DNA of 64,000 nucleotides. Origin: Mobula hypostoma. Lineage: Eukaryota. Each line of letters begins with the position of its first letter. Positions within the stretch are counted from its first letter, which is position 1. The stretch lies in the NCBI RefSeq assembly GCF_963921235.1, contig NC_086097.1, forward strand, positions 98,272,001 to 98,336,000, written 5' to 3'. The notes under the pieces are model-generated. The model saw nothing but the letters and a program-made list of their open reading frames with translations, did not search any database and had not been told where the DNA came from. Below are positions 29,340 through 53,470 of the stretch, in pieces. The translations under genes and the position numbers were made by a program.

Positions 29340-29853
29340 CTTCAGTAAAAATATAAAGAAAAATAGCTGATATTAAGAAGTGATTCCTCTTTTGTTTTCT
29401 TCAAATAACATTCGAGGACATGCAATACCAATTACATATCTATTCTCATTTCACTTAGGAAGAAAATAATAAAACCTGAAAATGGGAATTCACTGTCACA
29501 TGCCTTTGTAGCTTTGATAAATCTTTTATTGTAACTGAATTGCCTAACTCTGTCACATAAATGAAAAAGACAAGCTCAGGCCTGGTTACAAATGGGGAGT
29601 CATTTAATTTTGGATAGCTAGCATGAGCCACTGGTTCCTGTGAAGACAAAGGAGATTTGGAAATGCCATGAACGTCTGGATTGTTTTTTAAACGGCTTGT
29701 TTTGGGGTGGAATAAATAAAAAAAAATAATGAGGTTTTTTTGCATGTTGTTGGTGTGGATTTGAATCTACAACCCCCTCACATCCTGCCAAATAGATTCA
29801 CCTGCTTTAACTCAGGCGCAGTCATAGTCTGGAAACCTAAAGTAGGCCATTCA

Positions 29854-30069
29854 CAAACGAGAAAATCTGCAGATGCTGGGAAGGAAATCCGAGCAACACA
29901 CACACAATGCTGGAGGAACTCAGCAGGACAGGCAGCATCTATGGAAAAGAGTATAGTCAACGGTTCAGGCTGAGACCCTTCAGCAAGACTGTACTAAAGG
30001 GTCTTGGCCCAAAATGTCCACTGTACTCTTTTTCCATAGATGCCTGCTGAGTTCCTCCAGCATTGTATG
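29854..30069. mobile_element. Penelope pLTR-derived hairpin insertion with two decayed, inverted hammerhead motifs
   Basis: Inverted arms (..AATGCTGGAGGAACTCAGCAGG..CATCTATGGAAAA / TTTTCCATAGATG..CCTGCTGAGTTCCTCCAGCATT). 13-bp TSD AGTAGG(C/T)CATTCA at 29841-29853 and 30070-30082. Confidence 0.8.
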
Positions 30070-30789
30070 AGTAGGTCATTCAGCCTTTCAAGCTTGGTCT
30101 GGCATTCTAAGAGTTCAAAGGTAATTTTAAGTCAGTTGTCCGGTCTTTACTCTATACTCTGAAACCTCAACCAATGAAAACCTAAGAGAAAACTAGCTAT
30201 AGGTTGGTGGTGCTAAAATTGAACACGAGCATGGGTTCCTTGTTATTCAATTCCTCACATTTAACATGAGTAATCATAGACAAAGTTTAGACTCCACATT
30301 TCATCCCTAAAAGCTCCTCCATCTTATGTGTGAATGTTTTTTTAGATTTCTTACTTCAATAGCCTAGTGTTAGGTTTATAATAACACCCCTTTGTGCTGA
30401 AGTCCACCAGCAGAAGGGTCCTGTAGCCCTAATACACACAAATAGAATCAGTATAGATAGGAAAATGATGGGCTAAAAGGCCCATTTCTGTGATGCTGAA
30501 CTCCATTTTTGAACACCTTCGTCAGATCATTCTTCTAAACTTAAAGCTAGCACAATTTGTCTTTGTAAATTAAAGTCAGTTGTCACTGTGAACCTTACAC
30601 TTTGTTTGAAAGCTGATATACCCCTCAAGAATCTCAATTACCAACACACACATTACTATTGGTAAATCCAAACACTGGAGAACTAAATGACTCACTCCCG
30701 TTTGCTTGCCCCTAAGATAAAGACCAACATGCCATTGGTTTCTTAGATGACCCATTTATGTGATGTGGGCATCACTTGAGAAGATAGTG

Positions 30790-31350
30790 TTGATAAGAAA
30801 AAAAAGGAGGTGGTCATCTGGCCTGTCGAGCCTGTTTCACCATTCAATTATCTCACGGCTGATCTAGCTGTGATTACAGCAGTTCCATCTACCTGCCTTT
30901 TCCTCAGAACTCTAAACTTCCTATTATGCAAAAAATACATCTGTGTCTTAAATACACTTAATGAGGTAGCCTCTACTGCTTCCTTAGGCAGAAAATTCCA
31001 CAGGTTCATGTCTCTCTGTCCTAAATCTATTCCTCCGAATTTTGATGCAAATTTCAGTTCTGGTCTCACTTACTGGCGTAACAACCTTCCTGCCTCCATC
31101 TTATTTATCCCTTTCAAAATTTTGTGTTTCTTCTCTCTCATTTCCCTGAATTCCAGTGAGAATAGTCTCAGGTAAATCAATCTCTCCTCATAGACTAACC
31201 CCATCGCCACAATCAACCCTGTGAACTTTCTCTGCACTGCCTCCAAAACCAGTATATCCTTCCTGAAGTAAGGAGATCGGAATTGCATACAGTGCTCTAG
31301 CCGTGGCCTCAGTAATACCTCGCGCAGTTGCAGCACCATCCCCTTGTTCA
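30790..31350 (-). mobile_element. CR1 LINE 3' fragment
   Basis: LLRPRLEHCMQFRSPYFRKDILVLEAVQRKFT and NLWNFLPKEAVEATSL motifs. Confidence 0.85.
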
Positions 31351-31451
31351 CCATTTTTAGGCATTCTTACAGTCAAACACCCAGAGGACTCTCTGTTGCT
31401 CAGTATTGGAAAGGGCTTGACCATTTATTATGGATGTCCCAACCTTAATAA

Positions 31452-31708
31452 AAACCTGGCTGGTGGCGCAGTGACATCAGTGCCGGACTCCAGAGCGAAA
31501 GTTCCTGAGTTCGAATCCAGTCAGGCCACCTCCAGGCACGCTTTCCATCCATGCCGGGTTGAGTGTCGAGCTCACAACTCGGCCTTGTAAAAAAAAAACT
31601 GCGCTGTGAGAAGGACGTGGGTGACCACTCACAGGATCTTTCCTCCAAGACAATCACTTGAAAAAGTGGTCGCCGAGGCTCTGGCAGAGTATGGTACACA
31701 AAAAAACC
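31452..31708 (+). mobile_element. tRNA-derived SINE with TSD
   Basis: A-box TGGCGCAGTGA, B-box GAGTTCGAATCC, A-rich tail, and 9-bp TSD CCTTAATAA (31443-31451 and 31709-31717). Confidence 0.75.
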
Positions 31709-32894
31709 CCTTAATAATGGTCCGAAATATGTCAATAGGTACATTTAATGTTAGGGAAATGTAAACAATATACATCCTGAAATTCTTTTTCTTTGCAAAC
31801 ATCCACAAAAACAGAGAAGTGTCCCAAAGAATGAATGACAGTTAAATGTTAGAACCCTAAAGCCCCCAACTCCCCCCTCCAGTGCATAAACAGCAGCAAG
31901 GCAACAAACCACCCCCTCCCCCACAAGCAAAAAAAACATTGGCGCTCCCCACTCAACACTCAAGTGTGCAGCAAAACATCAATAAATTTCACAGTAAGAG
32001 GGGAGACATAACAAGCAATTCGCCGATTTTTATGATGTTAAAAGTCTGTTGCATCGCTTCTTCCGAGCTGTGCCCAAAGAACTCGGGTTCCTGGGCACAC
32101 AGCCAGCTCGCTGCTTCCGATCTTCTGTGTACTTCCATGACACATCAGGCGGAAGCACCACCCTTGAATCAGCCCCTCTCCACAGCCAGGAAAATCTGGC
32201 ATCCTGAAGGGTGCTGGTCTTCCAGGCCACACCTCACACTATCAGGATTAAATTCCACCTACCTTTCATTGCCTGCCTATCTTACCAACCAATCAATATT
32301 GCCTGATAGTGTACAACTATTTTGCACACTAACACCACCTCCAGTTTTCATGCCAACTGCAAACTTACTCGTCACATCTCTTACATTCATATCCAAGTTA
32401 TTAACATATATAACAAACAATATGGGTCCCACCATTGATTACTGTGGCACACCACTTGTCACAGACTTCTAATAATAAATCCTTTACCATCACCCTCTGT
32501 AACCTCACTGTCATCCCATGGGCTCCAAAACTTGCACTATTGTCCTATCTGGGATCTTGATAAAGGTCCAACTTAAGTCTCTAACCACACAGACCATATT
32601 CATATATTGTTATTTCTTTGAAAATTTCAATAGTCAGTCAACTGCCGAAAAAAACATGACATCTTTCAAAAGATAAAATTAATTCTGCCCTTGAGAATAC
32701 TTTCCCTGAACTTTGCTACCATTAGACTCACAAGTCTGTCATGACCTGGCTCATCCCTGTTGCTTTTTTTTGAATAAGGATACCATATTTGTTGCCCTCT
32801 AGTCATTTGGCACTTCATCCACAGCCAACATTGGTTTGAAAATCTTTGTCAAGACCTCAGCAATCTTCACCCTTGTATTCCCCAGCTGCCTGGC

Positions 32895-33307
32895 TGTCAA
32901 AACATGCCATCAAGTTTGTGGATGACACAACAGTGGTTGGCCTCATTAAAAATGACACGAGATGGAATACAGAGAGGAAGTGGAGAGGCTGCTGGATTGG
33001 TATGAGAAGAACAACCCAAGCTTGAACATGGAGAAGGTGGACTTAGGAAGGTGCAGACGAACCATCCTTCTCTGTGAATACATGGCTCCTGCGGAGAGAG
33101 AGTTAAGTGCACCAAGTTCCTGGGAGTTCACATCACAGATGACCTCATCTGGTCCCTTAATATCACCTCCCAGAACAAGGTGGCACAGCAACACTTCCAC
33201 TTCTTAAGATTGAGGTAAGCAAAGCTCCTCCCATCCCAATATCTTAACTGTGTTTTACAAAAGCACCATTCAGAATGCTTTGACAACTTGCATATTTATC
33301 TGGTATA
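32895..33307 (+). mobile_element. Rex1/Babar RT fragment, resuming at ~38058-38580 after a CR1 insertion
   Basis: IKFVDDTTVVGLI and EYREEVERLLDWYEKNNPSLN. It breaks at the CI(F)IWY motif and resumes WYRSSQASDHKSLQR at ~38060. Confidence 0.8.
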
Positions 33308-35863
33308 TCCATTGACCAATCTGGAAGTTTTGAGAGGAGGGATCTTCAATCAGGTCCACTGCCTGAAGGTAAAAGGCAGCAGCAGGTCAGTACAGTGAAA
33401 AACAAGTGTTGACCAGTGACCAATCAGCATTTGGGATTGATTACCAAAAGCAAATTAAACGAAGGCAGGGGCAAGTGCAACGGCCATTGTTGGAGAGGAC
33501 AGAGTCAGAGTGATCATCTTGAGGCTTCATCGAACTACAACTACAAGAAATATATGTAGCTGCAGCTTCCAACAAATTGTGTTAAGGAGTTGGAGCTGGA
33601 ACTAGATGAACTCGGGATCATTCGGGAGTGTGAGGGGGTGATATATAGAACATATGGTGAGGTAGTTACACCGAAGGAGCAGGACACAGGAAATTGTGTG
33701 ACCATCAGGAAAGCGGTTTAGAAGCCAGGAAAGAGTACCCCCGTGGTCACCCCTCTCAACAACAGGTAGATCACTTTGGATACTGTCGGGGGTGGGGGTT
33801 GCGGGGTGAAGAGAGATTGGGGGGTGAAGAGAGACAGAGAGACAGAGAATGAATGACCCAAAGTCACAATGGTCGAGTCTCTGGCACTGCAATTGCCTTT
33901 GCGACTTATAAGGGTAGTGGGGTGGGGGGAGAGAAGAACAAAGAGAGAGGGGGCACACTGTGGTGATAGGGTATTTGTTAGTTAGGGGAATGGACAGGAG
34001 GTTCTGTGGGAGAGAACAAGATTCTCGGATGGCATGTTGCCTCCTGGGTGCCAGGGTTTGGGATATCTCGGATCGAGTCCTCAGTTTTCTTAAGTGGGAA
34101 GGTGAACAGCCAGAAGTCATGGTCCATGCAGGTATCAATGACACAGGTAGGATGAGTAACGAGATTCTGCAAAGTGAGTTCAGGGAGTTGGGTGCTAAGT
34201 TAAAAGTTTAGGACCTCCAGGGTTGTGATCTCAGGAATACTATCCATACCACTTGCTAGTGAAGCCAGAACGAGGAAAATTATACAGTTTCAATATGTGA
34301 TTAAGAAGTTGGTGTAGGCGGGAGGGCATAAGAATTTTGGATCATTGAGCTCTCCTCCGGGGAAGCTGGGACCTATACAGAAGGGACAGCTTGCACCTGA
34401 ACTGGAGGAGGACTAATATCCTAGCGGAAGGTTTGCTAATGCTGCACGACGGGGTTTAACCTGGAGTTGCAGGGGATGGGAACCAGAGTGCCAGAACAGT
34501 TAGTGGAGAGGTTATGGTGGCAGATGTTGGTAAGACCTCAGACAAAATTAGGAATGAGAAGGTTGAGCCTGGGTGCAACTAGTGTCCTGAGTTTACTATA
34601 TTTCAATGCAAGCATCATCGTAGGAAAGGTGGATAATAGCACTAAAGATGGAGCAGCTGGTTTAGAGGCAACGTGTAGTGAGGGGAAGCTGTTGATACAG
34701 CAAATTACAGTCAACAGGATGAGTTGCAACTTAAAAGACAGACAAAATCAAAAAGGGTGAATACAGGAATGTTTCAAATTGTGCAATATACAGAATAATG
34801 TAGATGAACTTGCAGCGCAGTTGCAGATATGATGTAGTAAGCATCACTGAATCATAGGTGAAATATTGCAGCTGTAAGCTTAATGTCCAAGGATACACAT
34901 GGTATCAAAAAGGACCAACAGGAAGGCAGAAGGGGTGGTGTTACTCTGTTGACAAAAAATGAAATCAAATCATCAGAAAGGGGTGACATAGGGTTGGAAG
35001 GTGTTGAATCACTGTGGCTAGAGTGAAGGAACTGCAAGGGTTAAAAAAAAAACCCTGTTGGGAGTTGGAAACAGACCCCCAAACAGTAGAAAGGATGTGG
35101 TCTACAAATTACAATGGGAAGTAGAAAATGCATGCCTAAAGGGTAATGTTACAATCGTCATGGGGGATTTCAATATGCAAGGAGATTGGGAAAATCAGGT
35201 TCGTGCTGGATTCCAGCAGGGGGAATTTCTAGAGTGCCTATGAGATGGCTTTTTAGAGCAGCTCACGATTGACCCCACCAGAGGATCAGCTATTCTGGAT
35301 GGGGTGATACGCAATGAACCAGAATTGATTAGAAAACTAAAGATTGAATTCACTCTGAATTTTGAGGAGAGGCTAAAGTCAGATGTATCAGTATTACAGT
35401 GGAGTAAAGGGAATTACAAAGGCATGAGAGAGGAGTTGGCCAGAATTGACTGGAAGAGAACACTGGCAAGGATGATGGCAGAGCAGCAATGGCTGGAATT
35501 TCTGGAAGCAATTTTGAAGGCACAGGATATATACATCCCAAAGATGGAAGAGGTATTCTGAAGGAAAGATGACACAAAAGTCATCAAAGCCAACATAAAA
35601 GCCAAAAAGGGCAATGATAGAACAAAAATTAGTGGGAAGTTAGAGGATTGGGAAGCTTTTAAAAACCAACAGGAGGAAACAAGAAGTCATTAAGGGAAAG
35701 GTGGAATATGAAAATAAGCGAGTCAATAATATTAAAGAAATTACCAAAAGTTTCTTCAGAAACAAAGTGTAAAAGAGGTAAGAGAGGATATTAGACTGCT
35801 GGAAAATGATGGTTTAGATGTAGTAATAGGGGACAACTTAATGGCGGATGAACTGATTAAGTA

Positions 35864-36381
35864 CAGGTTTCCCCTGCTATCCGAAGGTAGAGCGTTCCTA
35901 TGAAACCGTTCGTAAACTAAAATGGCGTAAAGCACAGAAGCAATTACCATTAATTTATATGGGGAAAATTTTTGAGCGTTTCCAGACCCAAAAAAATAAT
36001 CTACCAAATCATACCAAACAACACATAAAACCTAAAATAACACTAACATATAGTAAAAGCAGGAATGATATGATAAATACACAGCCTATATAAAATAGAA
36101 ATAATGTATGTACAGTGTAGTTTCACTTACCAGAATCCAGAAGACTGAGCCAAAACTGATTTGTAGAAAAAACTGGCACGTACACACATGCACACACACC
36201 TGTCCGCGCAAGGCTTTATGACCATGGTAGTCTTTCTCGGGGTAAACACAAGTTTAAAGCAGGCGCCTTTTTTCAAAAAAGCGAAAATCCTCTTTCGGTT
36301 AGCGCAAACAGGTACTAATATAGGTCTTTCGTAAAAGTGAAATGTCACAAAGCGAACGTTTGGAAAGCGGGAGGACACCTG
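35864..36381. mobile_element. Tigger/pogo-derived MITE (518 bp)
   Basis: TA|CAGGTTTCCCCTGCTATCCGAA...TTTGGAAAGCGGGAGGACACCTG|TA. TA TSD interrupts CR1 ORF2 at ELIKY|FASIF. Same ends as the element at 58859-60471. Confidence 0.9.
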
Positions 36382-37261
36382 TATTTTGCATCAATCTTCA
36401 CTGTGGAAGACAATAGCAGTATGATGGAAGTGCCAGGTGTCGGGGCATTAAGTGTGTGAAGTTACCATTACTAGAGAGAAGGTTCTTGGGAAACTGAAAG
36501 ACCTGAAGGTAGATAAGTCACCTGAACCAGATAGTGTCCACCCTAGAGTTCTGAAAGAGGTGACTGAAGAGATCGTGAAGGCATTAGTAATGATCTTTCA
36601 AGAATCACTAAATTCTGGAATGGTTCAAAAAGACTGGAAAATTGCAAACGTCACTCCACTCACTCTTCAAGAAGGGAGAGGCAGAAGGAAACGAAACTAC
36701 AGGCAAGTTAGTTTGATCTCAATGGTTGGTAAGATGTTGAAGTTGATTACCAAGGATGAAGTCTCAGGGTACTTGGAGGCACATGATAAAATAGGCCATG
36801 GTTAGTATGGTTTCCTCAAGGGAAAATCTTGCCTGACCAACTTGCTAGAATTCTTTTAAGAAATAACAAGCAGGATAGACAATGGAGAATTGGTTGAAAT
36901 TGTGTACTTGGATTTTCAGAAGGCCTTTGACAAGGTACACATGAAGCTGCTAAACACGTTACGAGCCCAATGTATTAGAGGAAAGATTCTAGCATCAATA
37001 AAGCAGTAGCTAATTGGCAGAAGTCAAAGAGTGGGAATAAAGGGAGCCTTTTCTGGCTGGCTCCCAGTGACTCATGGTGTTCCATGGGTGGGGGTCTGTG
37101 TTGGACCAGATTCTTTTTTTGTTATATGTCATTGATTTGGATGATGGAATTGATGGCTTTGTTGCAAAGTTTGCAGATGGCAAGAGGATAAGTGGAGGAG
37201 CAGGTAGTTTTGAGGGAGTAGAGGGGCTACAGAAGGACTTCATAAGGAGAATGGGCAAATA

Positions 37262-37908
37262 AGCCACAGGAAAACTTCACTGCAGCAGGCCCTGGAAGGT
37301 TTGTGAAGGTAGAGGGTAAATTGAATGCAGCACAATGCAGGGAAATCCTGATGCAGTAAGAGAACTGTGACTTGGGAGATTTGTTTTCTAGCAAGACAAT
37401 AATCCCAAGCATTAAGGCAAAGCTACACAGGAATGGCTCAAAAACAACAAAGTTGATGTCCTGGAGTGGCCAAGTCAGAGTTCAGACCGCAATCCAATTG
37501 AGAATTTGTGGCTGGACTTGAAAAGGACTGTTCTCTCACAATCCCCATGCAATCTGACAGAACTTGAGCAGTTTTGGAAAGAATGGGGAAAAACTGCAGT
37601 GTCCAGATGTGCAAAGCTGATGAGACCTATCCACACAGACTCAAGGCTGTAATTGCTGCCAAAGGTGCTCCTACTAAATACTGACTTGAAGGGGGTGAAT
37701 ACTTATGCAATCAATTATTTTGTTTTATAATTGTAATTTAGATCACTTTGCAGAAATGTGTTTTCACTTTGACATGAAAGTCTTTTTCTGTTGATCAGTG
37801 TTAAAATAAGCCAAATTAAGTCCCACTGTGATTCAATACTGTAAAACAATAAACGTGAAAACTTCTGGGTGTGTGGGGGGGGGCAGTGAATACTTTTTAT
37901 TGGCACTG
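37262..37908 (+). mobile_element. Tc1 transposon 3' half (left end lost)
   Basis: Decayed F*QDNNPKH and [21 protein letters not shown] motifs; right TIR ends GGCACTG|TA. Confidence 0.85.
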
Positions 37909-39049
37909 TATATTGAAGGCAGAGGTTGACAGATTCCTGATTGGTCAGGGCATGAAGGGATATGGGGAAAAGTCAGGTGATTGGGGCAGAGGGGAAAATT
38001 GGATCAGGCACGATGAACTGTTGGAGCAGGCTCGATGCTCCTATATCTTGATAGTCTTATGGTACAGGAGCAGCCAAGCATCTGACCACAAATCCCTGCA
38101 AAGGACTGAGAACAGCTAAGAGGATCATAAGCATCTCCCTACCATCCGTTGGAACATTTATCAGAAGTGCTGCATATGCACGGCCCTTAATATTATTAGG
38201 GATCCCACCCATCCATCCAGCATCCTCTGACTTTCTATCATTAGGCAGGAGACTCTGATGCATAAAAACAGGAACAGTCAGGATGGGATAACATTTCTTC
38301 CCCCAGGCTTCTAGACTTCACGCCGTATCGTATTCGAAGTGTCACTGGTTAATCTGTTCTGTACCTTACAATGTTTAATATTAATGCACTTCAGTTTGTT
38401 ATTTATGCATGATTCATCTGTAGATTTTATCTTTACCTTCATTAGTTATCATGTGTAATGTGTGTTAAGAGTACTACTTCACATCCTGGTTCAGAGAAAC
38501 GTTTTCTAGTTCCTATGAACATTATATGATTACATATGACATATACATGTATATAGTCAAATGACAAACCTGACTTGAACACATCTCACATGCATAATCA
38601 GAAGATTAACCCCTTGCTTCCACCATTTCCGATTTAAAAGTCCAATTTCCAATCTGTTCTAATTTCTATTAATAAACCTGTCTGAATCTCACTGAATGCT
38701 CCAGTGACCTTTTAGGCAATATATTTCATCATTTATTCCTTATTTATCTTGCTAATGATTTCAATTAATCAGATGTGACGTCCTTAAAGCTCTGATGGGC
38801 GATGTGCTCAACTGTCTCTTACTAAACTGTCTAGTAACAGGCCACAAGAAATGTTACACTAATAGACCAAGTTATCAATAACAGAAAATGCTTAAACACT
38901 GAATGGGTCACATGGCATTTGCAGAAACAAAAACACAAGTTAATGGTTCAGGTCAAAGATCCTTCTGGATAACAGATTTCTATTTACTTAGCTTCACTTT
39001 CACCCCCTCAATGTGATGGTTGCATTTTAAGCAGTACGTGATACAATTT

Positions 39050-39177
39050 ACACACAAAGTTGCTGGTGAACACAGCAGGCCAGGCAGCATCTCTAGGAAG
39101 AGGTACAGTCGACGTTTCGGGCCGAGACCCTTCGTCAGGACTAACTGAAGGAAGAGCTAGTAAGAGATTTGAAAGTT
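39050..39177 (-). mobile_element. Penelope pLTR fragment (single arm) containing an intact hammerhead motif
   Basis: Same arm sequence as the hairpins at 39556 and 45916, extended through the ribozyme core. Confidence 0.8.
39107..39142 (-). ncRNA. Minimal type I hammerhead ribozyme motif (Penelope-associated)
   Basis: AGUC-CUGACGA-A-GGGU(CUCG)GCCC-GAAA-CG-UC/GACU: stem I AGUC:GACU, complete core, 4-bp stem II, loopless palindromic ACGU stem III, GUC cleavage triplet (between 39111 and 39110). Confidence 0.8.
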
Positions 39178-39555
39178 TAACATTTCAACGAGCAAATTCT
39201 GAAAAAGCTGTTACTTGGTGAGAAGAGTACAGTTCACAATCTTGAGTTAACATTTCCAGCTGCACACACACCCCGAGTGGTTATCTATTATTCAATGCGC
39301 ACTTGGCATTCTAAATTAGATAGCGTTTTACTGAGTTAGAAAAGCTAAAAATTGGCCTCTTACAGAAGACATTTTCACAGCGTATTTAATGCAAGACCAT
39401 GAGATGAAAGGGTTAGTCAACCACTCTGCACTTAATTCTGCTGGAAACAGACTGGCTGGTGTCTGAAAGCGTTTTGAGTGTGCAGCAATGCCATTTGCCA
39501 ATAGCACTTTTGTTATGGTCTCACTGTGACAGAGAAGAAAGCAATCCCAGTCCTA

Positions 39556-39734
39556 GCAACACACATCAAAGTTGCTGGTGAACACAGCAGGCCAGCCAGC
39601 ATCTCTAGGAAGACGTACAGTCGACTGTACCTCTTCCTAGAGATGCTGCCTGGCCTGCTGTGTTCACCAGCAACTTTGATGTGTGTTGCTTGAATTTCCA
39701 GCATCTGCAGAATTCCTGTTGTTTGTGTTTTTAA
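39556..39734 (+). mobile_element. Penelope pLTR-derived near-perfect palindromic insertion
   Basis: 67-bp arms 39556-39622 and 39623-39689 with 2 mismatches and no spacer. Perfect 13-bp TSD AATCCCAGTCCTA (39543-39555 and 39735-39747). Confidence 0.88.
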
Positions 39735-39808
39735 AATCCCAGTCCTACTTCCTTTACTTGCAGCCCTCCAACTTATTCTGACTCACTTATCAATTAACTT
39801 CCCATACA

Positions 39809-42800
39809 CAGTGGATTCTAGTTAATTGGGACACATCAGAACTAGTACATTTTGGCCCAACTAAAGGTCCACCCCAATTAGCTGAAATTTCATGGAAATA
39901 GTTAAAATATAAAAAAGACAAATTACCATTTAACTGAGTAACAAATTATGTATTTAAATGAAACAGAACAAATTAGAACACAACCAATACTACTACAGTA
40001 CTATAAAACCGTATTAGTTTCTTACAGCTATCAAAAGAATTCATCCAGGGTACGCTGCCATGTTCTTTTGATTGACAGTAAATGAACAAAGTCAGCACAG
40101 ATACCTAGTGTAGATAATGAACTGCCTTCATAACAATGTTTTTGACAATTATTTATTTCCAAATATTTATTTCCTTTGTAACATTCAAGATGATTGTCAA
40201 TACCTACAAATATACCTATAGCGCTTAACTTGAAGCAGCAAAAGGGTTTCATTTTCACTCCCAGCTGTTTCTGGCATCTCCAAACCTGAATGCTTGAAAC
40301 CACCGTGAGCAAAATGAAAATGGTTCTGAATTGCCCTACTGCTTATCGCTCACCAACTGTCAGTGCAAGAATCACTGCTGTTGGAAGACAAACGTGCACA
40401 TCTGATGCTACTTTAAAACTGTTCACTCTAAGCACACCAGTACACGACTGATGCTAGTTAGAACCTATTCAGCAACATTCAGTCTTTTGTTGGGGGGGGG
40501 GGGGGAAGAGACAGCATCAGTGGCCGTGCCTCTGGCAAGGGGTTTAGATGGGCTGGAGTTTGTTAGGTGTGTTCAGGAAGGTTTCTTGACACAATATGTA
40601 GATAAGCCTACAAGAGGAGAGACTGTACTTGATTTGGTACTGGGAAATGAACCTGGTCAGGTGTCAGCTATCTCAGTGGGAGAGCATTTTGGAGATAGAG
40701 ATCACAATTCACAATAGCAATGGAGAGCGGAACAAACAAGTTAGAAAAGCATTTAATTGGAGTAAGGGGAATTATGAGGCTATCAGGCAGGAACTTGGAA
40801 GCTTAAATTGGGAAAAGATATTCTCAGGGAAAGGTACAGAAGAAATGTGGCAAATATTCAGGGGATATTTGTGTGGAGTTCTGCATAGGTACGATCCAAA
40901 TAGACAGGGAAATTATGGTAGGGTACCAGAACTGTGGTGTACAAAGGCTGTAATAATTCTAGTCAAGAAGAAAAGCTTACAAAAGGGTCAGAGAGCTAGG
41001 TAATGTTAGAGGTCTAGAAGATTATAAGGCTAACAGAAAGAAGCTTAAGGAGGAAATTAGGAGAGCCAGAAGGGGCCATGAGAAGGCCTTGGCGGGCAGA
41101 TTAAGGAAAACCCCAAGGCATTCTACAAGTATGTGAAGAGCAAGAGGATAAGAGGTGAAAGAATAGAACCTATCAAGTGTGTATGGAACCGGAGGAAATA
41201 GCAGAGGTACTTAATGAATACTTTACTTCAGTATTCACTATGGAAAAGGAGCTTAGTGATTGTAGGGATGACTTGCAGCAGACTGAAAAGCTTGAGCATG
41301 TAGATATTAAGAAAGAGGATGTGCTGGAGCTTTTGGAAAGCATGAAGTTGGACAAGTCGCCGGGACCAGATGAGATGTACCCCAGGCTACTGTGGGAAGT
41401 GAGGGAGGAGATTGTTGAGATTCTGGCGATGATCTTTGCATTATCAATGGGGACATGAGAGGTTCCAGAGGATTGGAGGGTTGCGGATGTTGTTCCCTTA
41501 TTCAAGAAAGGGAGCAGAGATAGCCCAGGAATTTATAGACCAGTGAGTCTTACTTCGGTGGTTGGTAAGTTGATGGAGAAGATCCTGAGAGGCAGGATTT
41601 ATGAACATTTGGAGAGGCATAATATGATTAGGAATAGTCAGCATGGCTTTGTCAAGGGCAGGTCATGCTTACGAGCCTGATCGAATTTTTTTGAGGATGT
41701 GACTAAACAGGTTGATGAAGGAAGAGTAGTAGATGTAGTGTATATGGATTTCAGCAAGGTATTTGATAAGGTACCCCATGCCAAGCTTATTGAGAAAGTA
41801 AGGAGGCATGGGATCCAAGGGGAGATTGCTTTGTGGATCCAGAAATGGCTTGCCTACAGAAGGCAAAGTGTGGTTGTAGATGGGTCATATTCTGCATGGA
41901 GGTCAGTGACCAGTGGTGTGCCTCAGGGATCTGTTCTGGGACCCCTGCTCTTTGTGATTTTTATAAATGACCTGGATGAGGAAGTGGAGGGATGGATTAG
42001 TAAATTTGCTGATGGCACAAAGGTTGGGTGTGTTGTGGATAGTGTTGAGGGCTGTCAGAGGTTACAGTGGGACATTGATAGGATGCAAAACTAGGCTGAG
42101 AAGTGGCAGATGGAGTTCAACCTGGATAAGTGTGAAGTGGTTCATTTTGGTAGGTCAAATATGACTGCAGAATATAGTATTAATGGTAAGACTCTTGGCA
42201 GTGTGGAGGATCAGAGGGATCTTGGGGTCCAAGTCCATAGGACACTCAAAGCAGCTGCGCAGGTCGACTCTGTGGTTAAGAAGGCATACGGTGCATTGGC
42301 CTTCATCAATCGTGGAATTGAATTTAGGAGCCGAGAGGTAATGTTGCAGCTATACATGACCCTGGTCAGACCCCACTTGGAGTGTACTGTGCTCAGTTCT
42401 GGCCACCTCACTGCAGGAAGGATGGGGAAACCAGAGAAAAGGTGCAGAGGAGATTTACAGGGATGTTGCCTGGATTGGGGAGCATGCCTTATGAAGACAG
42501 GTTGAGTGAACTCTGTCTTTTCTCCTTGGAGCGAAGGAGGATGAGAGGTGACCTGATAGAGGTGTACAAGATGATGAGAGGCATTGATCGTGTGGATAGT
42601 CAGAGGCTTTTTCCCAGGGCTGAAATGGCTGCCACAAGAGGGCACAGGTTTAAGGTACAGAGGAGATGTCAGGGGTAAGTTGTTGTTGTTGTTTGGTTTC
42701 TTTTAAAAAATGCAGAGTGGTGAGTGCGCCGAGTGGGCTGCTGGCAACGGAGGTGGAGGCGGAATTGACAGGGTCTTTTAAAAGACTTTTGGATAGGTAC

Positions 42801-43067
42801 ATGGAGCTTAGAAAAATAGAGGGCTATGGGTAACCCTAGTAATTTCTAAGGTAGGGACATGTTTGGTACAACTTTGTGGGCTGAAGGGCCTGTATTGTGC
42901 TGTAGGTTTTCTATTTTTCTGTTCTCCTGATCCAATTAAGCGGCATGGTGTCCAAATAAGCAAAGGAAATCCTGGTAATTTTCTCGATTAGTGTTTGTTC
43001 TTTAAGAGTTGCCCCAAATAAGCGGCTGACCCGATTGACCCACGGCCCAATTAACTAGAATCCACTG
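39809..43067. mobile_element. Non-autonomous Tc1/mariner-superfamily (Tigger-like) DNA element split by a CR1 insertion
   Basis: 22-bp perfect TIR CAGTGGATTCTAGTTAATTGGG / CCCAATTAACTAGAATCCACTG|TA. Confidence 0.8.
40525..42925 (+). mobile_element. Relatively young 5'-truncated CR1 LINE (ORF2 endonuclease end, RT, 3' tail)
   Basis: YMDFSKVFDKVPH, SGVPQGSVLGPLLFVIFINDL, KFADGTK and LVRPHLE, with few stops or frameshifts. Confidence 0.95.
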
Positions 43068-43914
43068 TATTAATTTGCAATAAAGCAGTGGCCAATTGAT
43101 CCAACATATTGGAGGAAACCAGACCACCAGGTAAAAACCCACTTAGCCATGGGAAGAAAATGCAAGACAAAAGATCTGGAGCTGCAGTAGACTGCTTTCC
43201 AGTTGGTACAGGCAGACACAATATAGATTATATGGAGGAATGTTCACTTCTGCTATCCCTACCACCCAATCACATTCTCCAGCTCTTCAAACTACATGGA
43301 TCCAAAGGTGAAGGGTTTCACAGTCAGTTGCTGTCACTCTGGCTTCCAAATTGTATCAGAGATGATAGAGGAGGGTGGGGGGGAAATCTACGTCATAGTT
43401 CCCAGTTTTCTGCTTGCAACTGCATGAAAGAAGTCATCTCTGTGTTCTATTGTGGGTGTCTGATGTTTGCTTTGGTAGCTGAGGAAAGCCAAGAGAGTAA
43501 GGAGTACAGCTGAATAGAAGACTGCTGAAAATGACCAGGCGCTGGGTCAAGGAATTCTGCTCAACAACTCTGATGTCACACACATAAAGGCTAAAATAGG
43601 GAAGAATGTGAAAAGGATGCTGAAGCATTGGCTGACAGTGTAGGATAGGCATATGGGTAAGTTTTAAGGAGCATTAGTGAAATATAATTCTATGCCACAA
43701 AACACGAATCTCAATTTATAAAAATGTGGAACTTCTTCCTGAACTACTAATATATGCTAAAAATTGGTGCAGGAGCACATCTTAAGTCATTTCTAACTCT
43801 TCTGGCACCTCAGGGACACAGATTATATCTTATTTCCAACACATTCAATAAGATGTTCCAATCAGAATAAGTAAACTCAGGTTTGCATCCTCTTCTGTAG
43901 CAGTTTCTGATGTC

Positions 43915-45080
43915 TGTAAGACATAAGAGCAGAGTTAGGCCATCTGGCCCATCGAGTCTACTCTGTCATTCAATCATGGCTGATCCTTTTTTTCTAGCTC
44001 TTCCTCAACCCGTTCCCGGCCTTCTCCCCGTAACCTTTGATGCCATATCCAATCAAGAACCTGAGACTGTGCCCTCTTGTCCTAGACTCTCCCACCATGG
44101 GAAACACTCTTTCCACATCTACTCCATCTCGCATCTTTCAATATTCGAAAAGGTTTCAATGAGATCCCCCCCACCCCATCCTTCTGAATTCCAGCGAATA
44201 CAGACTCAGAGCCATCAAATGTTCCTCATATGATAACCCTTTCATTCCTGGAATCATCCTTGTGAACCCGCTCCAATGCTAGCAAATCTTTTCTAAGATG
44301 AGGAGCCCCAAAACTGTTCACAATACTCAAGGTGAGACCTCACCAATGCCTTACAAAACCTCAGGATCACATCCTTGCTCTTGTATTCCAGACCTCGTGA
44401 AATGAATGCTAACATGGCATTTGCCTTCTTCACCATCAACTCAACCTGCAAGTTAACCTTCAGGATGTTCTGCACAAGGACTCCCAAGTTCCTCTACATC
44501 TCAGATTCCTGGATTTTCTCCCCATTTAGAAAATAGGTCACACATTTATTTCTACTATCAAAGTTCATGGCTATGCATTTTCCAACATTGTGTTTCATGT
44601 GCCACTTTCTTGTCCATTATCCTAATTTGTCCAAGTCCTTCTGCAGCCTACCTGTTTCCTCAACACTACTTGCACCTCCACTAATCTTCACATCATCTGC
44701 AAACTTGGCATCAAAGCCATCTATTCCACCATCTAAATCATTGATATACAGCACAAAAAGAAGTGGCCCCAACACCGACCCCTGTGGAACACAACTAGTC
44801 ACTGGCAGCCAATCAGAAAAGGATCCTTTTATTCCTACTCGTTGCCTCCTACCAATTAGCCAATGTTCTAACCATGTTAGTAACTTTCCTGTAATGCCAT
44901 GGGCTCTTAACTTGGTAAGCAGCCTCATGTGTGTCACCTTGTCAAAGGCCTTCTGAAAGTCCAAATATATAACATCCACTGCATCCCCTTTATCTATCCC
45001 TGAAGGAAACCACGCTGACTTTGGCTGTTACCAAGTACGCCATCACCTCATTCTCAGCAATTGACTCTAACATCTTCCTA
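43915..45080 (-). mobile_element. CR1 LINE RT/3' fragment
   Basis: YLDFQKAFDKVTH..VPQGSVLGPLLFVLYINDL..KFADDVK. Confidence 0.92.
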
Positions 45081-45445
45081 ACCACACAATACACACACGT
45101 TAAGCAGTGTTGTGGCTTGTTGGAGTCAAAGCTGCTCTTTAAGGATCTCTGTGAAAGTCCTTTGATTTCCTCCCATGTTCCAAAGTCATACCAGGAAGGT
45201 TAACTGGTCACTGTAAATTGTCCCATGTTTAGGTTAGGGTTTATCAGGGCTGTGGGGTGGCATGGCTCCAAGGGTTGGAAGAGAGCTATTCCAATCTGTA
45301 TCGTTCAATAAAAAGTAAAACCCTGAAGCCAGTGGTGAGTCAGCTGCTTGACTTAAAGCCATTATTTTGATGCAGTTGAGCTGCTGCCTCACAGTTTCAG
45401 TAATCCATGTTCAATTCTAACCTTCTGTACTGTGTAAGTGATGTG

Positions 45446-48400
45446 TGTAACCCTCTCCCCGGCCGCCTGCACCAACTTGGCTTAGCAGAGCTAGCTGTCA
45501 ACAGCCATGTGACTCAGCAGCAAGAAGGCTAGCTTTCATAAGCAATATAGGTCTAGGGTTGGTATGATTTGGGGTTCAACCAAACAGGAACCTCCTGATG
45601 TTCTGATTAAAGGAACCTCGATTTGAGTGAATGCTGTGTAAATATTGCCCATACACAGTTATCGGTCGCCCAGAAATAACAGATTGCACACCAGCATAAA
45701 ATTAAGTATATTTACCAAATTTACAGTTACAGAAAAAGGAAAGAAATAAAAAGGCCCATTACAGCTAAACCAGTCCAATGTGCACATAAACATTGGAGCT
45801 CATTTCTTGAGTAGTCGGGGGTGTATTGCTTTACTCACATGGTGAACCCATGGTTTGCGTGAGAGCACCTGTCACAGTCAGTATTTCCCTCGAAGACCAT
45901 CTTGAATGAACTGGCAAAACACATAAAAGTTGCTGGTGAACACAGCAGGCCAGGCAACATCTCTAGGAAGAGGTGCAGTCGACGTTTCAGGACGAGACCC
46001 TTCGTCTGCACCTCTTCCTAGAGATGCTGCTTGGCCTGCTGTGTTCACCAGCAACTTTTATGTGTGTTGCTTGAATTTCCAGCATCTGCAGAATTCCTGT
46101 TGTTTGAATGAACTGGCTCTTTTTGGAGTTACTCACCTGTACAAGGCACTTCTTGCAACACGACTTATCTTCCAATGGTATTCTGTGGCATCTTCCCTTG
46201 TGCCCCGCTCCACAGCTCCCGCCAAGAGGACCCCAGACTACTGTCCTCCAGAATTCTCTTCCCACCCAGCTCGCTAGAACCTTCTCTACATCCCACAATC
46301 CTGACTGGTTGACAACACGGCTCCTTATCTTTCACCAAAACATTTTTACCAGAACACACTGCATTTACAGAAACTGCTAAAATAAAGTACTTCACAGCAT
46401 AGCAATAGAAATCTTAACCAGGGCATTATCTTCTCCTCCCACCAAAAAGTCATGTCCTCGCGAGTTTGGAACTCATTAAACCATTATTAAAAATACAGCA
46501 TTGAAATAAATATTATGATTTCAGTACCCCCAATCCATTTCTAAATATCAGTAACATATCTTGCTACTGGGATGGACACAACTCTGTTTCCCCGGTGCAT
46601 TATATGCCAGCTTATCAGGGGATTTCCTAACTGACACTTTATCTCATCGTCAGCTTCTTCAGCCTCACGTACTCCTTGTGACTGTTCCGTCTACTTGGGG
46701 ATGCCGCCTCGTCTATCACTTGTACCTACCAGCGACTCGGGTCTCCCTACCAGCTGACGGAACTCAGCTTCATTCCCAATTATATTGGAGCCCAGTTTGA
46801 ACAGGTGCTGCTGAACATAGTCAACCTTCACTGGTGCTAACCAGCGAGACCTCTCCTGGAAAGGGATGTCCTCCATCACTATAGTGTGGTGAGTACTCTT
46901 GGAGCAGCAAACAAACTCATCAGTAAAAAAAGACATCTTCAAGCTTCAACATCCTTTCCCTTTCCATTCCTCGGGTATTGGGGAGTTAACAAAGTCAAAT
47001 GACTTTGCTGTTAACTTTCCCGATTCAGGAGACTGTTCCTCTCCCAGGTAAGGTCTCCCTCTGAGGTGTTCCTGATAATCACTGTCATCCTGTTCCGTGG
47101 ACAGCTGAAGGTTTCTGCAGAGTTCAGGTCTCACCAACGCTCTAGCACGTAAGCGTGACCCTTCCGTGGTCCTCCAGAGCATCCACCTGCAGGGGCCATG
47201 GCATCGGGCATTCCGGAGGAATCTGGGGTTTCCCGTCACTCTAGCTACTTCCCCAGGATGTAGAATGATGGGTTTAGACTGGGTGTACCAAACAGTTTCT
47301 CAATTATGCTCATCATCCTGATTAGGAGGAAATTGCACCTTCTCAAAAACAGCTCTGAACACTGAGTGAAAGGACAGGGTGCTTTTTGGATGGTCCCACG
47401 AGCCTTCTCACAATGGGAGTATTTGTTCCCACAAGAACGGAAGCTTCACTTTTCTCCAAGTAAAATGTGGACTGCCCATGGTCCCACCTCTCCAGGCTCC
47501 CCAATCTTCTCACGTCATCAGAAGCCTGGACTAACATGACATCCTTACCAGCTGATTGGTCAAAATGCATTAAATCAGCGTAACTTCTTCAAAACTTTTA
47601 CAGAATTCAGCGCTTTAAACCACAGGGCGTCAGGGATTTGAATAACCACTCCACTCTGAACACCAGTATTACTTGTGGTTAACCTCTTCAAATTGCACCT
47701 TAATCCCAGCAGCATCCAATACAAAGTACTTTAATTACAACACACCTCACTTTCCCCAAACACCAGTTTACACACTAGTTTAAACACACAAATAAAACCA
47801 CTTAATCAATCCTTAAACAGCATTCACCCAGCATCTGAAATCCAGGGTGAGCACCCTACAAATGTAACCTTCTCATCAGGCTTGTACCCCAACTTGGCTT
47901 GTTAGTTAACTCGTTTACCAGCCATGTGACTCAGCGGTGAGAAGACCACCTTCCATATGCAATAGGGTCGGTATGAGCTGGGGTTCAACCAAACAGGAAT
48001 GTTGGGATGTCTCAATTAAAGAAACCCCAATTTGAGTGAATGCTGTGTAAGTACTACCCACACACAGATATTGGTAGCCCAGAAATGACAGATCTTACGC
48101 CAGCATAAAAACATAAAAGAAAGCATATTTACCAAATTTACATTTACAGAAAAAAAATAAAAGGGGCCCATTACATCTAAACATATAAACGTTGGAGCTC
48201 ATTTCTGGAATAGTCAGGGGTATCACTTCACTCACACATTGGACCCACCGTCTGCATGAAAGCACCCACCACAGTCCAAATTTCCCTTGAAGACCATCTC
48301 AAATGAACTGGCTCTCTCAGGCATATGGGCTTTTCCTCCTTGGAGCGATCCTGCCAAAAGGATCCCAAACCAGACTATTGTCCTCCAGAAATCTCTTCCC

Positions 48401-48569
48401 ACCCAGCTTGCGAGAACCTTCTCTACATTTCAGAATCCTGATTGGCACACAATATTCCTAAATTGGACAACAAGGCTTCTTATCTCCAGAACACACTGCT
48501 TTTACAGAAACTGCTAAAATAAAATAAAGCATAGCAGTAGAAATCTACACGTGTAGTACAGGGCATTAC
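45446..48569 (-). mobile_element. Internally deleted Gypsy-like LTR element: 3' LTR ~45446-46430, 5' LTR ~47863-48569
   Basis: Two diverged ~700-800 bp direct repeats, both bounded by TGTAAC..GGGCATTA. Polypurine tract GGTGGGAGGAGAAG (46431-46444, minus). Degenerate tRNA-Pro-like PBS at ~47840-47862. Gag traces IPDALWFKALNSVKVL and IGEPGEVGPWAVHIL. No TSD found. Confidence 0.78.
45916..46103 (+). mobile_element. Penelope pLTR-derived hairpin insertion inside the LTR
   Basis: Inverted arms around a partial antisense hammerhead. Perfect 14-bp TSD TTGAATGAACTGGC (45902-45915 and 46104-46117). The insertion is absent from the other LTR (~48302-48313). Confidence 0.88.
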
Positions 48570-49372
48570 CGATAAAAATCTTTACACACATGAAACTTGC
48601 AGGTATTTGCATGAGAACCAAGATAAAATATATAGCCAAACCAAAACTGGCACAGGTCAACTAGCAGAGCTTTAGCATTCTTTTACTACTACTGGATTAA
48701 TTCCTAGGCCCATAGTTTAGCACTTCGCCAATAGCAACAATTAGTTTCCTGGGGCAAAAATAATACATGAGATAATTAAATGGTGGAACTTAATCCCTGT
48801 GAAATGAAAAATTCGTTCATGAAATTATACCATTGTTCTCAAAATATGTGCACCCCATCAGAATGGCAAATTTCGATGTCCATTTGGGAAACTCTTAGAT
48901 AAGCATATGTATGAAAAATGGAGGGCTACGTTGGAGGGAAGCATTAAATTGATCTTAAGAGCAAATTGAAAGGTCAGCACAACATTGTGGGTTGAAGGGC
49001 CTATACTCTGCTATAGTGTTTGATGTTCTATGTACTGTGGAGAACACTGACTGAATCACAGTCTGATATGGAGGTTTCAATGCACAGAATCAAAACAGGC
49101 TTCAGAGGGTTGTAGATTCAGACAATTCCATCACGTGCACCATCACTGGGGACACAGATATCAAAGTCGGTTTCTCAAGAAGGTACCACCCATCAATAAG
49201 GACCCCCATCATTTACATACATTCTTCTCTCAGGTAGGAGGTATAGGAGTCTGAAGGCCCATACTCAATGTTTTTCCCCTCTGCCATCAGATTTCAAACT
49301 GTCCATGAATCTATGAACACTGCCTCACAATTCCACTTTTGAATTATTTTAAATTTTAACTGATATTACTTA

Positions 49373-50807
49373 CAAAACCCATTTCTAGAAAAGTTGGGAT
49401 ATTTTCCAAAATGCAATAAAAAAATCTGTGATATGTTAATTCACATGAACCTTTATTTAACTGACAAAAGTACAAAGAAAAGATTTTCAATAGTTTTACT
49501 GACCAACTTAATTGTATTTTGTAAACGTACACAAATTTAGAATTTGATGGCTGCAACACACTCAACAAAAGTTGGGACAGAGGCATGTTTACCATTGTTA
49601 CATCACCTTTCCTTTTAATAACACATTTTAATCATTTTGGAACTGAGGATACTAATTCTAGTAGATTTGCAATTGGTAATTTTGTCCATTCTTGCTTGAT
49701 ACAAGACTTCAGCTGCTCAACAGTCTGTGGTCTCCATTGTCTGATTCCCCTCTTCATGATGCACCATACATTTTCAATAGTAGATAGATCTGGACTGGCC
49801 GCAGGCCAGACAAGCACACGCACTCTGTGTCTACAAAGCCACGCTGTTGTAGCCCGTGCAGAATGTGGTCTGGCATCGTCCTGCTGAAATAAGCATGGAC
49901 GTCCCAGGAACAGATGTCACCTTAATGGCAACATATGTCTCTCTAAAATCCTAATATACGCCTCAGAGCCAATGGTACCTTCACATACATGCAACTCACC
50001 CATGCTGTGGGCACTGATGCACCCCCATACCATCACAGATGCTGGCTTTTGCACCTTTTGCCGATAACAATCTGGATGGTCATTTTCATCTTTGACACAG
50101 AGAACTCGACGCCCGTTTTTTCCGAAAACTAGCTGAAATGTGGACTCATCTGACCACAGCACACGGTTCCAGTCTTTCGGTCCATCTGAGGTGAGCTCGG
50201 GCCCAGAGAACTTGCCGGCGTTTCTGCATAGAGTTGATGTATGGCTTCCTCCTTGCGTAATACAGTTTCAAGTTGCATTTCTGGATGCAGCGATGGACTG
50301 TGTTGAGTGACAATGGTTTTCCGAAGTACTCCCGAGCCCAGGTGGCTATAAGTGTCACAGTAGCATGAAGGTTTCTTAGGCAGTGCCGCCTGAGGGCTCG
50401 AAGATCACGCGCATTCAACAGTGGTTTCCGACCTTGCCCTTTACGCACTCAGATGTCTCTGAATTCTCTGAATCTTTTCACAATATTATGTACTGTAGAT
50501 GTTGAAAGACCTAAATTCTCTGCAATCTTGCATTGAGAAATATTCCTTTTGAACTGATACTTGAATATTCTGTGCACTTTTCAATCCTATTTTAACTCTG
50601 TCCCAACTTTTGTTGTGTGTTGCAGCCATCAAATTCTAAATTTGTGTATATTTACAAAATACAATTAAGTTGGTCAGTAAAACTATTGAAAATCTTTTCT
50701 TTGTACTTTTGTCACTTAAATAAAGGTTCACGTGAATTAACATATCACAGATTTTTGTTTTTATTGCATTTTGGAAAATATCCCAACTTTTCTGGAAATA
50801 GAGTTTG
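49373..50807 (-). mobile_element. Tc1 (DD34E) transposon with ~210-bp IR/DR TIRs, decayed
   Basis: TA|CAAAACCCATTTCTAGAAAAGTTGGGATATTTTCCAAAATGC...TATCCCAACTTTTCTGGAAATAGAGTTTG|TA. Motifs WSDES, VMVWGCIS and FQQDD-(34)-SPDLSTIE; one in-frame stop at 49917 and a frameshift near 50165. Confidence 0.95.
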
Positions 50808-50879
50808 TATATATTGCACTGTTTTGCTGCCACAAAACAACAAATTTCACAACACATGTCAGTGATTATAAAGCAGCTT

Positions 50880-52570
50880 GTAGATGATACACAGAGCAGC
50901 CACTGAGTGCCAGTGATGGAGGAAATGAATGTTCAATGTGGCTGATGTGGTACTCTGATGCTGCACTCTGTTATTCTCCTGATATGTGCCTTGCAGATGG
51001 TGGTAAGGCCAGGGATGTCGGGCAGTCGTCACCAATCTCTGAACTGTTCTTGTAGTTAATGGCTGGTCCACTTGAATCTCTGGTCAACAACAAGCCCCAG
51101 AATCTTGACAGTTATGTTACTACCATTACTAGAGTCCTTCTAGTTAGAGACTTTTGTAGTCTAGAAGTTACTTTTCATCTTTTTGTCCATGCCTGAATAC
51201 TGTCTTGGTGTTGTTGATGCTCCAGTTGAAGAATTGTGCATAGACCTGTACAATATGCATTGATACATTTATGAGTGAACATCCTCATTTTAGTCTCATG
51301 ACAAAAGATCACAGATGAAGCAGCTGAATTTGGCTGGCTCAACAACACTCTGAGAACTCCTGCAATTCTGGGTCTGGGATTATTGACCTCTGACAACAAT
51401 CTTATTTTATGCGAGACATTACTCAAACCGTAAGCCTTTTCTCTTTGATGCATACTGGCATAGGTTTTACCGGAGCATATTAATGCTACACTTGATCAGA
51501 TTCTGCATCGATACCACATTCACTTCTAGAATTCAGTTATGACCCACATTTCGACCAAAGCTGTGATAAGGTCCATAGCCAAGTGGTCCTGATGGAAACC
51601 AAACTGGACGTCAGTGGTAAACTATTGAATAATTGTTGCTTATTAGTGTTGCCAATGACAGTTTCCATTACCCCTCTGATTATTGAGGTTGGACTGATTG
51701 GGTGGTAATTAGCCAGACTGGATTTGACCTACTCTCTTTGTCAATGTAATATACCCAAGTAAGCATTCATATTGCAAATGTGCAATTGTACTGGAATAGC
51801 TTGGCAGCAAGCATAGCTGGTTCCAGGTCTTCAGCTGCAACACGCTGGGAAAGGTTTCACTGCTAACGCAATGGTCTTTCTGTAGAAGCCGTGTTTGTGG
51901 TTAGAGATAACAGGTGCTTTGGAATGTGAGTCGTCCAATGAAGGGAGTGCGTTTTCGTGTTGTGTGCCTGACAACGGTGTGAGTTGGGTCTTTTGTTCAG
52001 CGAGAGATGAAGGAAGATGATGCCAGAGAGTGGACCTGGAATGGGGCCATCATTAGACAAAGCCCTGGGAGATCGAAGGAGGATCGATGAAGGGGGAAAC
52101 TGTGTGCACATTAGACTGTTTCATTAAAATGGGCCCTTTTCTTATTTGGCTTTTTCATTACTAACCCTTCAGTTGAATTAAGAATTATAAAGTTAAATTG
52201 TTTAATTGTATGCGGTGTCCTGTCTGTTATTTCATGGTACTGATTTGCAACAGGGTAACGAATCATGCAGGGGGCTTTGGGGTGGGCTTGCGCTTTAATC
52301 TTCCACGCTTGGGGCTGAAGATTGTCTTCTCTAGACTTACGCAGCCGACAGAACTGGAGTGTGTCACAACACTATAGCTGTGATAATGTCTTGTCCCTTT
52401 ACTTTAGCGATACCCCTCTTAACCATTTATTGATATCCTGTGGAAGTAATGGAATTAACAGGAGAATGCCTTCTGTGATGGTGACCATTGCCACTCGAAA
52501 CCAAAGTAGACTGCAAACCCTAGATCTGGACCATTTGTTGTGAGATGACTCAACTGTCTGATGTAACTTC
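50880..52570 (-). mobile_element. Old CR1/L2-group LINE fragment interrupted by a solo LTR
   Basis: LNIHFLHHWHSVAALCIIYKL motif; decayed RT-like sequence on both sides of 51836-52368. Confidence 0.55.
51836..52368 (+). mobile_element. Probable solo LTR (Gypsy-like)
   Basis: TG..CA ends. Internal GGGCCCTTTT..GGTGT..TCTGTTATTTC blocks resemble the reverse complement of the LTRs at 45446 and 47863. Confidence 0.55.
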
Positions 52571-52719
52571 ACTAGGCTAGCACCTATCAAATAGAATAGG
52601 CTTGTCAGTTATTTGATATTCCTCCCATCCTACCCTGTTCATGACTTGCCCAACCAGCAAATTTTCTGTTCTAACAGATGATATATCCAACATAAATTAC
52701 TTCACTTCACAGCATGAAA

Positions 52720-53470
52720 GATTCACTTTGGAAGGTCGAAGCTAAAGGCAGAATACAGAGTTAGTGACAAGATGGATTAGCAGTATGGAGGAACAGAGGC
52801 ATCTTGGGCTCCACATCCACAGATTTTTCAAAGTTGCCACGGAAGTTGATAAGGTGGTTAAGATGCCGTATGGTGTGTTTATCTTCATGAGTTCAAGGGC
52901 CACGAGGTAATGTGGCAGCTCTATAAAACCAAGGTTAGACCACACTTGGAATATTGTGTTCATTTCTGGTTGCTTCATTTTAGGAAGGATGTGGAAGATT
53001 TAGAGAGGGTGTAGAGGAGATCTACCAGGAAGCCATCCAGATTGAAGTTCATGTCTTATGAGAATAGCTTGAGTGAGCTAGGGCTTTTCTCTTTGCAGCA
53101 AAGGAGGATGTGAGGTAAGTTGATAGAGGTGTACAAGATTACAAAGAGATGTAGATCAGTGGACAGCCAGAGACTTGCTCCCAGGGTGGAAAGTGCTAAT
53201 ATGAGGGGCCAGAATTTTAAGGTGATTGGAAATATGGGCAGGGAGCTATTTGCTTTTAAACACAGAAAGTTGTGGGTGCATGGAACACACTACCAGGAGT
53301 GGTGGTAGAGGGAGATACATTAAGGACATTTAGGAGACTCTTAGATAGAACAGTAGACAAATGGAGGGCTATGTGGGAGGGAAGAGTTACATTGACATTA
53401 GAATAGATCAAAAGTATGGCACAACACCATGACTAAAGAACATTCTGTGTTGTAATGTTCTATGTTTTAA
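52720..53470 (+). mobile_element. CR1 LINE 3' fragment
   Basis: AGACCACACTTGGAATATTGTGTT..AGGAAGGATGTGGAAG (RPHLEYCV..RKDVE) plus a CR1 3' tail. Confidence 0.85.

Follow-up and report, generated by a model that had tools for sequence, protein, structure and literature searches.

We find that an intron of EXD1 in Mobula hypostoma contains a 125-bp remnant of a Penelope-like retrotransposon, an element end truncated at its 5' side. The remnant carries a standard minimal hammerhead ribozyme (min-HHR) in the sense orientation, and two relatives lack it at the orthologous position. We infer that this stub is an inert passenger, spliced out of the EXD1 transcript uncut, and place the probability of the reading as a whole at roughly 0.88. 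The stretch analysed, called the window throughout, comprises 64,000 nucleotides (contig NC_086097.1 of assembly GCF_963921235.1, positions 98,272,001 to 98,336,000).

The motif, identified by sequence read-out and folding, is a minimal type I hammerhead at 39107..39142 on the minus strand. From 39142 to 39107 it reads AGUC-CUGACGA-A-GGGU(CUCG)GCCC-GAAA-CG-UC/GACU, and cleavage would fall between 39111 and 39110. All positions of the core (CUGANGA, GAAA and the UH triplet) are kept. Stem I has 4 bp (AGUC/GACU), stem II has 4 bp with G10.1-C11.1, and one extra base follows A9, between 9 and 10.1. Helix III is absent; in its place stands a loopless palindromic ACGU (15.2-16.2) that permits a dimer, which can be drawn without crossing pairs. 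The earlier note had given this sequence exactly, including the core, stems I and II, the ACGU and the cut site.

Judged by its letters, the motif fits every sequence feature of the metazoan min-HHRs of Penelope-like elements (PLEs). With those described in PLE pLTRs (PMC4209133) it shares the type I core, the short stem I, the extra base 9/10.1, G10.1-C11.1, the palindromic 15.2-16.2 and the missing helix III, as well as a genomic distribution of mostly single truncated copies with a few tandem pairs ~3 kb apart around an ORF. Its stem II of 4 bp differs from the 7-8 bp of the Schistosoma min-HHR (PMC4209133). Assignment to the minimal type I hammerheads of the Penelope pLTR kind, also proposed in the earlier note, is borne out by these features and by the parent elements described below.

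The hammerhead motif is real as a repeat: exact copies of its 31-mer core number 6,207 in the genome, and the reversed control sequence has none. Within the window, the loose pattern CTGANGA..GAAA was not above chance (10 occurrences against 5.8 expected; 7 of 100 shuffles reached 10). A search with hammerhead models had been suggested beforehand and did not add support, as the Rfam covariance-model scan returned no hammerhead family at E<=1. The miRNA matches in the same scan correspond to a hairpin at 39555-39690.

A pattern requiring the full core and both stems found 11,886 motifs genome-wide, split evenly between the strands (5,900/5,986), while a 31-mer from the tail had 53,258 exact genomic matches. 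The ray copy number of at least 11,886 exceeds the 4,000 for the coelacanth and 9,000 for Xenopus quoted in PMC4209133; the first half of that paper mentions no ray family.

The motif lies within a 5'-truncated pLTR piece of 125 bp at 39051..39175 (minus strand), delimited by copy alignment. Counted from the cut site, this stub runs from -66 to about +61. It matches another copy in the genome at 95% identity over 128 nt and has flanking sequence in common with 30 other genomic copies of the core. It is bracketed by a 4-bp duplication, TTTA, recognised by flank comparison on the left (39047..39050, plus strand) and present on the right at 39176..39179 (plus strand), where the left flank joins directly in the relatives with an empty site; one base of each TTTA copy could equally belong to the element. 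The orthologous site is empty in two related organisms (sequence runs X19 and X20, one contig each), whose flanks differ from the window by ~5% and in which the flank at 39176 is directly preceded by the sequence left of the insertion. Since the site is empty in both, the simplest reading is that the stub was inserted after the split from the X19 and X20 lineages. At 39011-39016, X19 also has ~85 bases more than the window (its aligned pieces are 123 letters apart, compared with 38 letters of flank); this indel is independent of the ribozyme insertion.

Longer copies of the family run upstream into an ORF with RYIDD and GVIY..YIG motifs. Most of 82 homologues of this ORF contained PF00078 and some PF01541, and a genome search with one homologue gave 56 scored matches, most of them stop-free. 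Dozens of Penelope-like copies have open frames of 730-1,054 codons, and the family is therefore young and probably recently active. Among the 22 parent loci fetched, 10 had a frame of 1,043 codons and 10 had a complete hammerhead at both ends, ~3.5 kb apart. The parent elements have the layout pLTR-ORF-pLTR, and partial pLTR tandems with a hammerhead in each were seen at loci L155, L156, L160-L165, L167 and L170. The 1,043-codon frame matched RVT_1 (E=0.0023) and GIY-YIG (E=0.0011), both below the curated Pfam cut-offs, and Pfam searches of three partial parent ORFs gave no match. RYIDD was found in L055, and the pattern search had no match in L156. The parent is an EN+ Penelope-like family. 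A CX4CXXC linker, CKRNKCYTC, precedes GIY-YIG in the L156 protein; a CX2-5CxxC linker between RT and EN has been described for Neptune elements, with a similar one in Nematis (PMC8557442). In this linker motif, the feature on which the likeness is based, the parent appears to resemble the Neptune clade.

The stub keeps a canonical G10.1-C11.1 pair that is absent in the ORF-intact copies examined. In the latter, 37 of 38 hammerheads have U instead of C at 11.1, giving a G-U pair, and one has no stem II; these loci were chosen by likeness to one query, and other intact subfamilies may exist. Decay of a CpG was considered as the source of T at 11.1 and rejected, as the neighbouring G is invariant (49/49) with C/T at 19/29. 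The G-U at 10.1-11.1 is a subfamily variant.

Two kinds of hammerhead outside autonomous PLEs offered themselves for comparison. Metazoan non-LTR retrozymes (PMC7229834; bioRxiv 10.64898/2026.07.22.740005) are likewise short, non-coding, Penelope-related repeats with a type I hammerhead, and the latter study reports them in one chondrichthyan. The domesticated hammerheads of amniotes (RECK, CTCL, DTNB; PMC6155905) share with the ray motif a type I fold within a host-gene intron. If the stub were a non-autonomous retrozyme unit, it should belong to a tandem, circular-RNA-forming array; it is single, with no tandem partner in the window, and for want of tandem units it failed this comparison. 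Rather than being a retrozyme, it derives by truncation from an autonomous element, the family's upstream sequence leading into an RT-EN ORF. Nor is it a domesticated intronic hammerhead like RECK or CTCL, because the site is not conserved in X19 and X20: the amniote examples have cross-species conservation and tertiary contacts (PMC6155905), whereas the ray motif is lineage-specific, minimal and embedded in a transposon. The stub also lacks the canonical helix III and closed loop 1. The empty site and the RT-EN ORF of the parents already largely refute both explanations, whose remaining probability is negligible.

To examine how such stubs arise, we mapped the ends, to within a few bases, of the first 90 among 100 listed exact tail matches. 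All of these lie within the initial 5 Mb of a single contig, and in a few cases two of them are arms of the same insertion. The 3' ends fell into two classes, 56 at +38..+78 and 34 at +92..+110. Their separation matches the 30-40-bp tail of PLEs, a signature that Frangieh et al. (2024, PMC11167929) tie to reverse transcription starting at two internal sites. The 5' ends lay beyond -240 in 39 copies, at -239..-46 in 15 and at -45..-6 in 34, with 18 at -36..-28, and only 2 of the 90 were within 5 nt of the cut site. In all, 51 of the 90 copies were 5'-truncated within 240 nt, and an inverted arm was flagged in 27; such arms, together with tails and truncation, typify PLEs (PMC8557442).

Per-base loss over the ribozyme was about sevenfold that upstream, with no rise at the cut. 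Exact genome-wide counts for one subfamily fell from 7,871 to 7,359 (0.935) with 5 nt more on the tail side, to 5,713 (0.776) once -36..-32 was added, and to 5,425 (0.950, about background) once -39..-37 was added. Point variation as the cause of the drop at -36..-32 was rejected: among the first 100 copies, 23 were lost at this step, 18 of them truncations or junctions and 5 point changes. The 5' ends have a sharp upstream edge near -35, coincident with TCAGTT, the end of a pyrimidine-rich stretch directly 5' of the ribozyme (39143..39165, minus strand) that was recognised from the sequence and the family 5' ends, which accumulate immediately downstream of it. We take this stretch to be initiator-like, and also 3'-splice-acceptor-like.

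Given this distribution of 5' ends, the family seems to be copied through an uncut ribozyme, with many stops at its 5' edge, which suggests an RNA template that begins shortly before the ribozyme and is mostly left uncut. Our preferred reading of the edge is run-off from the transcript start; RT stalling or template switching via stem I, or self-priming, are alternatives. Initiator-like sites have been described in the pLTRs of D. virilis and Adineta. Of the 12 full-length elements with 5' pLTR sequence, 3 have starts close to the ribozyme (-46, -17, +19), and the pLTR of the other 9 extends further upstream.

Poseidon_Ac (PAc) of Anolis carolinensis (PMC11167929) is similar in several respects, with two classes of 3' ends 30-40 nt apart, an AT-rich (ATT) target, and a ribozyme that is copied without being cut and lies near the pLTR-ORF junction. 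In the ray parents the open frame begins ~60 nt downstream of the cut site, whereas that of Poseidon_Ac begins at stem II, and the ray protein differs in its Neptune-type linker before GIY-YIG.

Three more insertions of related sequence lie in the window. At 29857..30043 (minus strand), copy alignment revealed a diverged relative (78% identity) with a short inverted arm, in which the core, GAAA and cut triplet of the motif at 29955-29990 are damaged. A head-to-head insertion of the same family at 45914..46105 was found by self-comparison and copy alignment; its sense arm has lost the 5' strand of stem I, and its core and stem II are broken, but GAAACGUC/GACU is kept, the GACU sitting in a 69-bp hairpin arm (45914-46070). 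The earlier note had called these two minus-strand copies (~29955-29990 and ~45977-46007) damaged, which they are, although the second keeps an intact substrate half. Its inventory was incomplete, since it missed a fourth family insertion at 39555-39725, another head-to-head arrangement without a catalytic core (again from self-comparison and copy alignment). Inspection of the copies also confirmed its statement that the window holds no intact hammerhead partner in cis.

The insertion at 39555-39725 consists of two tails joined at a palindromic GTCGAC that holds the cut site. We considered whether this joint (39622/39623) could be a general record of ribozyme cleavage, and rejected the idea: just 56 perfect junctions of this type exist genome-wide. 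The scarcity of copies starting at the cut weakens it further, and the GTCGAC palindrome favours joining anyway. In EXD1 pre-mRNA the insertion would form a hairpin with 68-bp arms (-130 kcal/mol), a possible dsRNA or editing substrate. Old fragments of Penelope-like ORF regions (75-77% identity), antisense to EXD1, occur at 31743-31918, 44070-44161 and 63652-63727 (plus strand).

EXD1 has a described role in piRNA biogenesis. One exon in the window is identical over 50 residues to P0001, the Mobula hypostoma protein "piRNA biogenesis protein EXD1", and 8 coding exons of P0001 map to the minus strand from 61591 to 3029, a visible coding span of 58.6 kb. Gene identity is based on the P0001 match and exon mapping: a Pfam search of 15 ORF pieces from the window detected no EXD1 exon, and a PDB search gave EXD1 at E=0.58 only. 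The same exon mapping places the hammerhead motif, in sense orientation, in a GT-AG intron of 25,491 nt (29340..54830, minus strand). It had been proposed from the sequence that EXD1 runs on the minus strand and that its pre-mRNA carries the motif in an intron of ~25 kb, and both points hold.

Other repeats populate the window. Two long LINE-type RT copies within EXD1 (40535-42916 and 56352-58575) lie in opposite orientation and are ~90% complementary. A decayed Tc1/mariner-type transposase at 20785-21513 (minus strand) matches a Sleeping Beauty HTH (E=1e-13). Broken frames at 13877-15532 (minus strand) presumably resemble a hAT/Buster-type transposase; Pfam gave no match for them. Inverted-repeat elements, MITE- or Tc1-like, occur at 59354-59673 (154-bp arms, 12 nt apart) and 49415-50761 (147-bp arms, 1,053 nt apart).

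The presence of a sense motif in such a gene is not unusual. With insertions spread uniformly, the EXD1 intron has a 0.043 probability of containing an intact motif in sense; the figure is 0.095 for the 58.6-kb coding span and 0.157 for a 100-kb gene. With per-gene probabilities of this size, many genes must carry one.

Folding predictions and published experiments bear on whether the motif would cut. In the predicted minimum-energy fold of the monomer, core GACG pairs with the cut triplet; shuffled sequences fold about as well (z = -0.96). Under a nearest-neighbour model, which leaves out the tertiary energy of the core and help from protein, a strand-swapped dimer of the active type has -14.7 kcal/mol against -23.8 kcal/mol for two monomers, and is thus ~9 kcal/mol less stable; such a trans dimer is held by three 4-bp helices. 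With 761 nt of context, stems I and II had predicted probabilities of ~0.84 and ~0.98; with 251 nt, the value for stem I was only ~0.10. The long-context values count against an inert motif, as does its canonical G10.1-C11.1 pair. For Schistosoma, a single min-HHR did not cleave and dimers cleaved at a low level (Cervera and De la Pena 2014, PMC4209133), and 8 of 9 Xenopus retrozyme dimers were inactive (bioRxiv 10.64898/2026.07.22.740005). The anole motif cuts only with the element protein present; cleavage was dispensable for insertion, and no RNA-seq reads ended at the cut site (Frangieh et al. 2024, PMC11167929).

These results weigh on the proposal that Penelope transcripts pair in trans with the motif, so that a dimeric hammerhead cuts EXD1 pre-mRNA and links a piRNA gene to transposons. 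The intact core and sense orientation would allow it, and many ORF-intact parents could supply both RNA and the protein, which enables cleavage in the anole (PMC11167929). Against this, the insertion is absent in two relatives, and ~12,000 equally intact motifs would compete for any partner, so that an effect would not be specific to EXD1. The dimer is disfavoured in the model, published min-HHR monomers are inactive and dimers weak, and the likely partners have the weaker G-U at 10.1-11.1. Family copies seldom start at the cut site. Moreover, cutting EXD1 during transposon activity would be expected to weaken defence, not raise it. The coupling of EXD1 RNA to transposon expression, on which the earlier note had ended, is therefore unsupported, and we consider it highly improbable.

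A low-level, non-adaptive effect of the stub on EXD1 RNA has a somewhat better, though still small, chance of being real. It would consist of occasional protein-assisted cleavage, as in thousands of introns, or of cryptic splicing into the upstream pyrimidine-rich CAG/TAG. The sense orientation would suit either route, and we presume that 39165-39141 is acceptor-like sequence. No joint to the stub appeared among the contig matches listed for two presumed-RNA runs, with the exons lying outside the compared stretch, and truncated genomic copies have no common upstream exon. In D. virilis, an intron 3' end does map to the 5' end of helix I (PMC4209133).

The inert passenger is consistent with the following course of events. 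The GIY-YIG endonuclease of the element would have nicked an AT-rich site. From an internal start on the RNA, ~60 nt downstream of the ribozyme, the element's RT would then have copied across the still uncut motif as far as -66, leaving the 4-bp duplication. The lone motif could not form helix III and would probably misfold with its core paired to the cut triplet, and cutting would require a second copy and probably also the element protein. The insertion is recent and common, and for EXD1 it is almost certainly of no consequence.

Looking beyond EXD1, the role of the minimal ribozymes of PLEs has been described as unclear (PMC8557442). We tentatively suggest, at somewhat less than even odds, that the ray copies are a fossil map of the Penelope template RNA, which would start at the 5' edge of the ribozyme and be reverse-transcribed uncut in the germ line, with the ORF-intact subfamily already without G10.1-C11.1. 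A literature search of main texts, covering few subscription papers, turned up nothing about this ray family, nor about a pile-up of 5' ends at a PLE hammerhead; shark and ray min-HHRs could be in supplements, such as Table S1 and Fig. S2-S3 of PMC4209133. If true, the fossil map would be in vivo evidence that the min-HHR of an active vertebrate Penelope does not process its template, and the ribozyme-bearing stubs would be run-off products of internal priming near the 5' end of the RNA. From the distribution of ends one would predict that the capped RNA begins at about -36 and that cleavage ends at +1 are scarce. The ray family, with its many intact parents and >50,000 copies available for end counting, is a useful test bed for Penelope biology.
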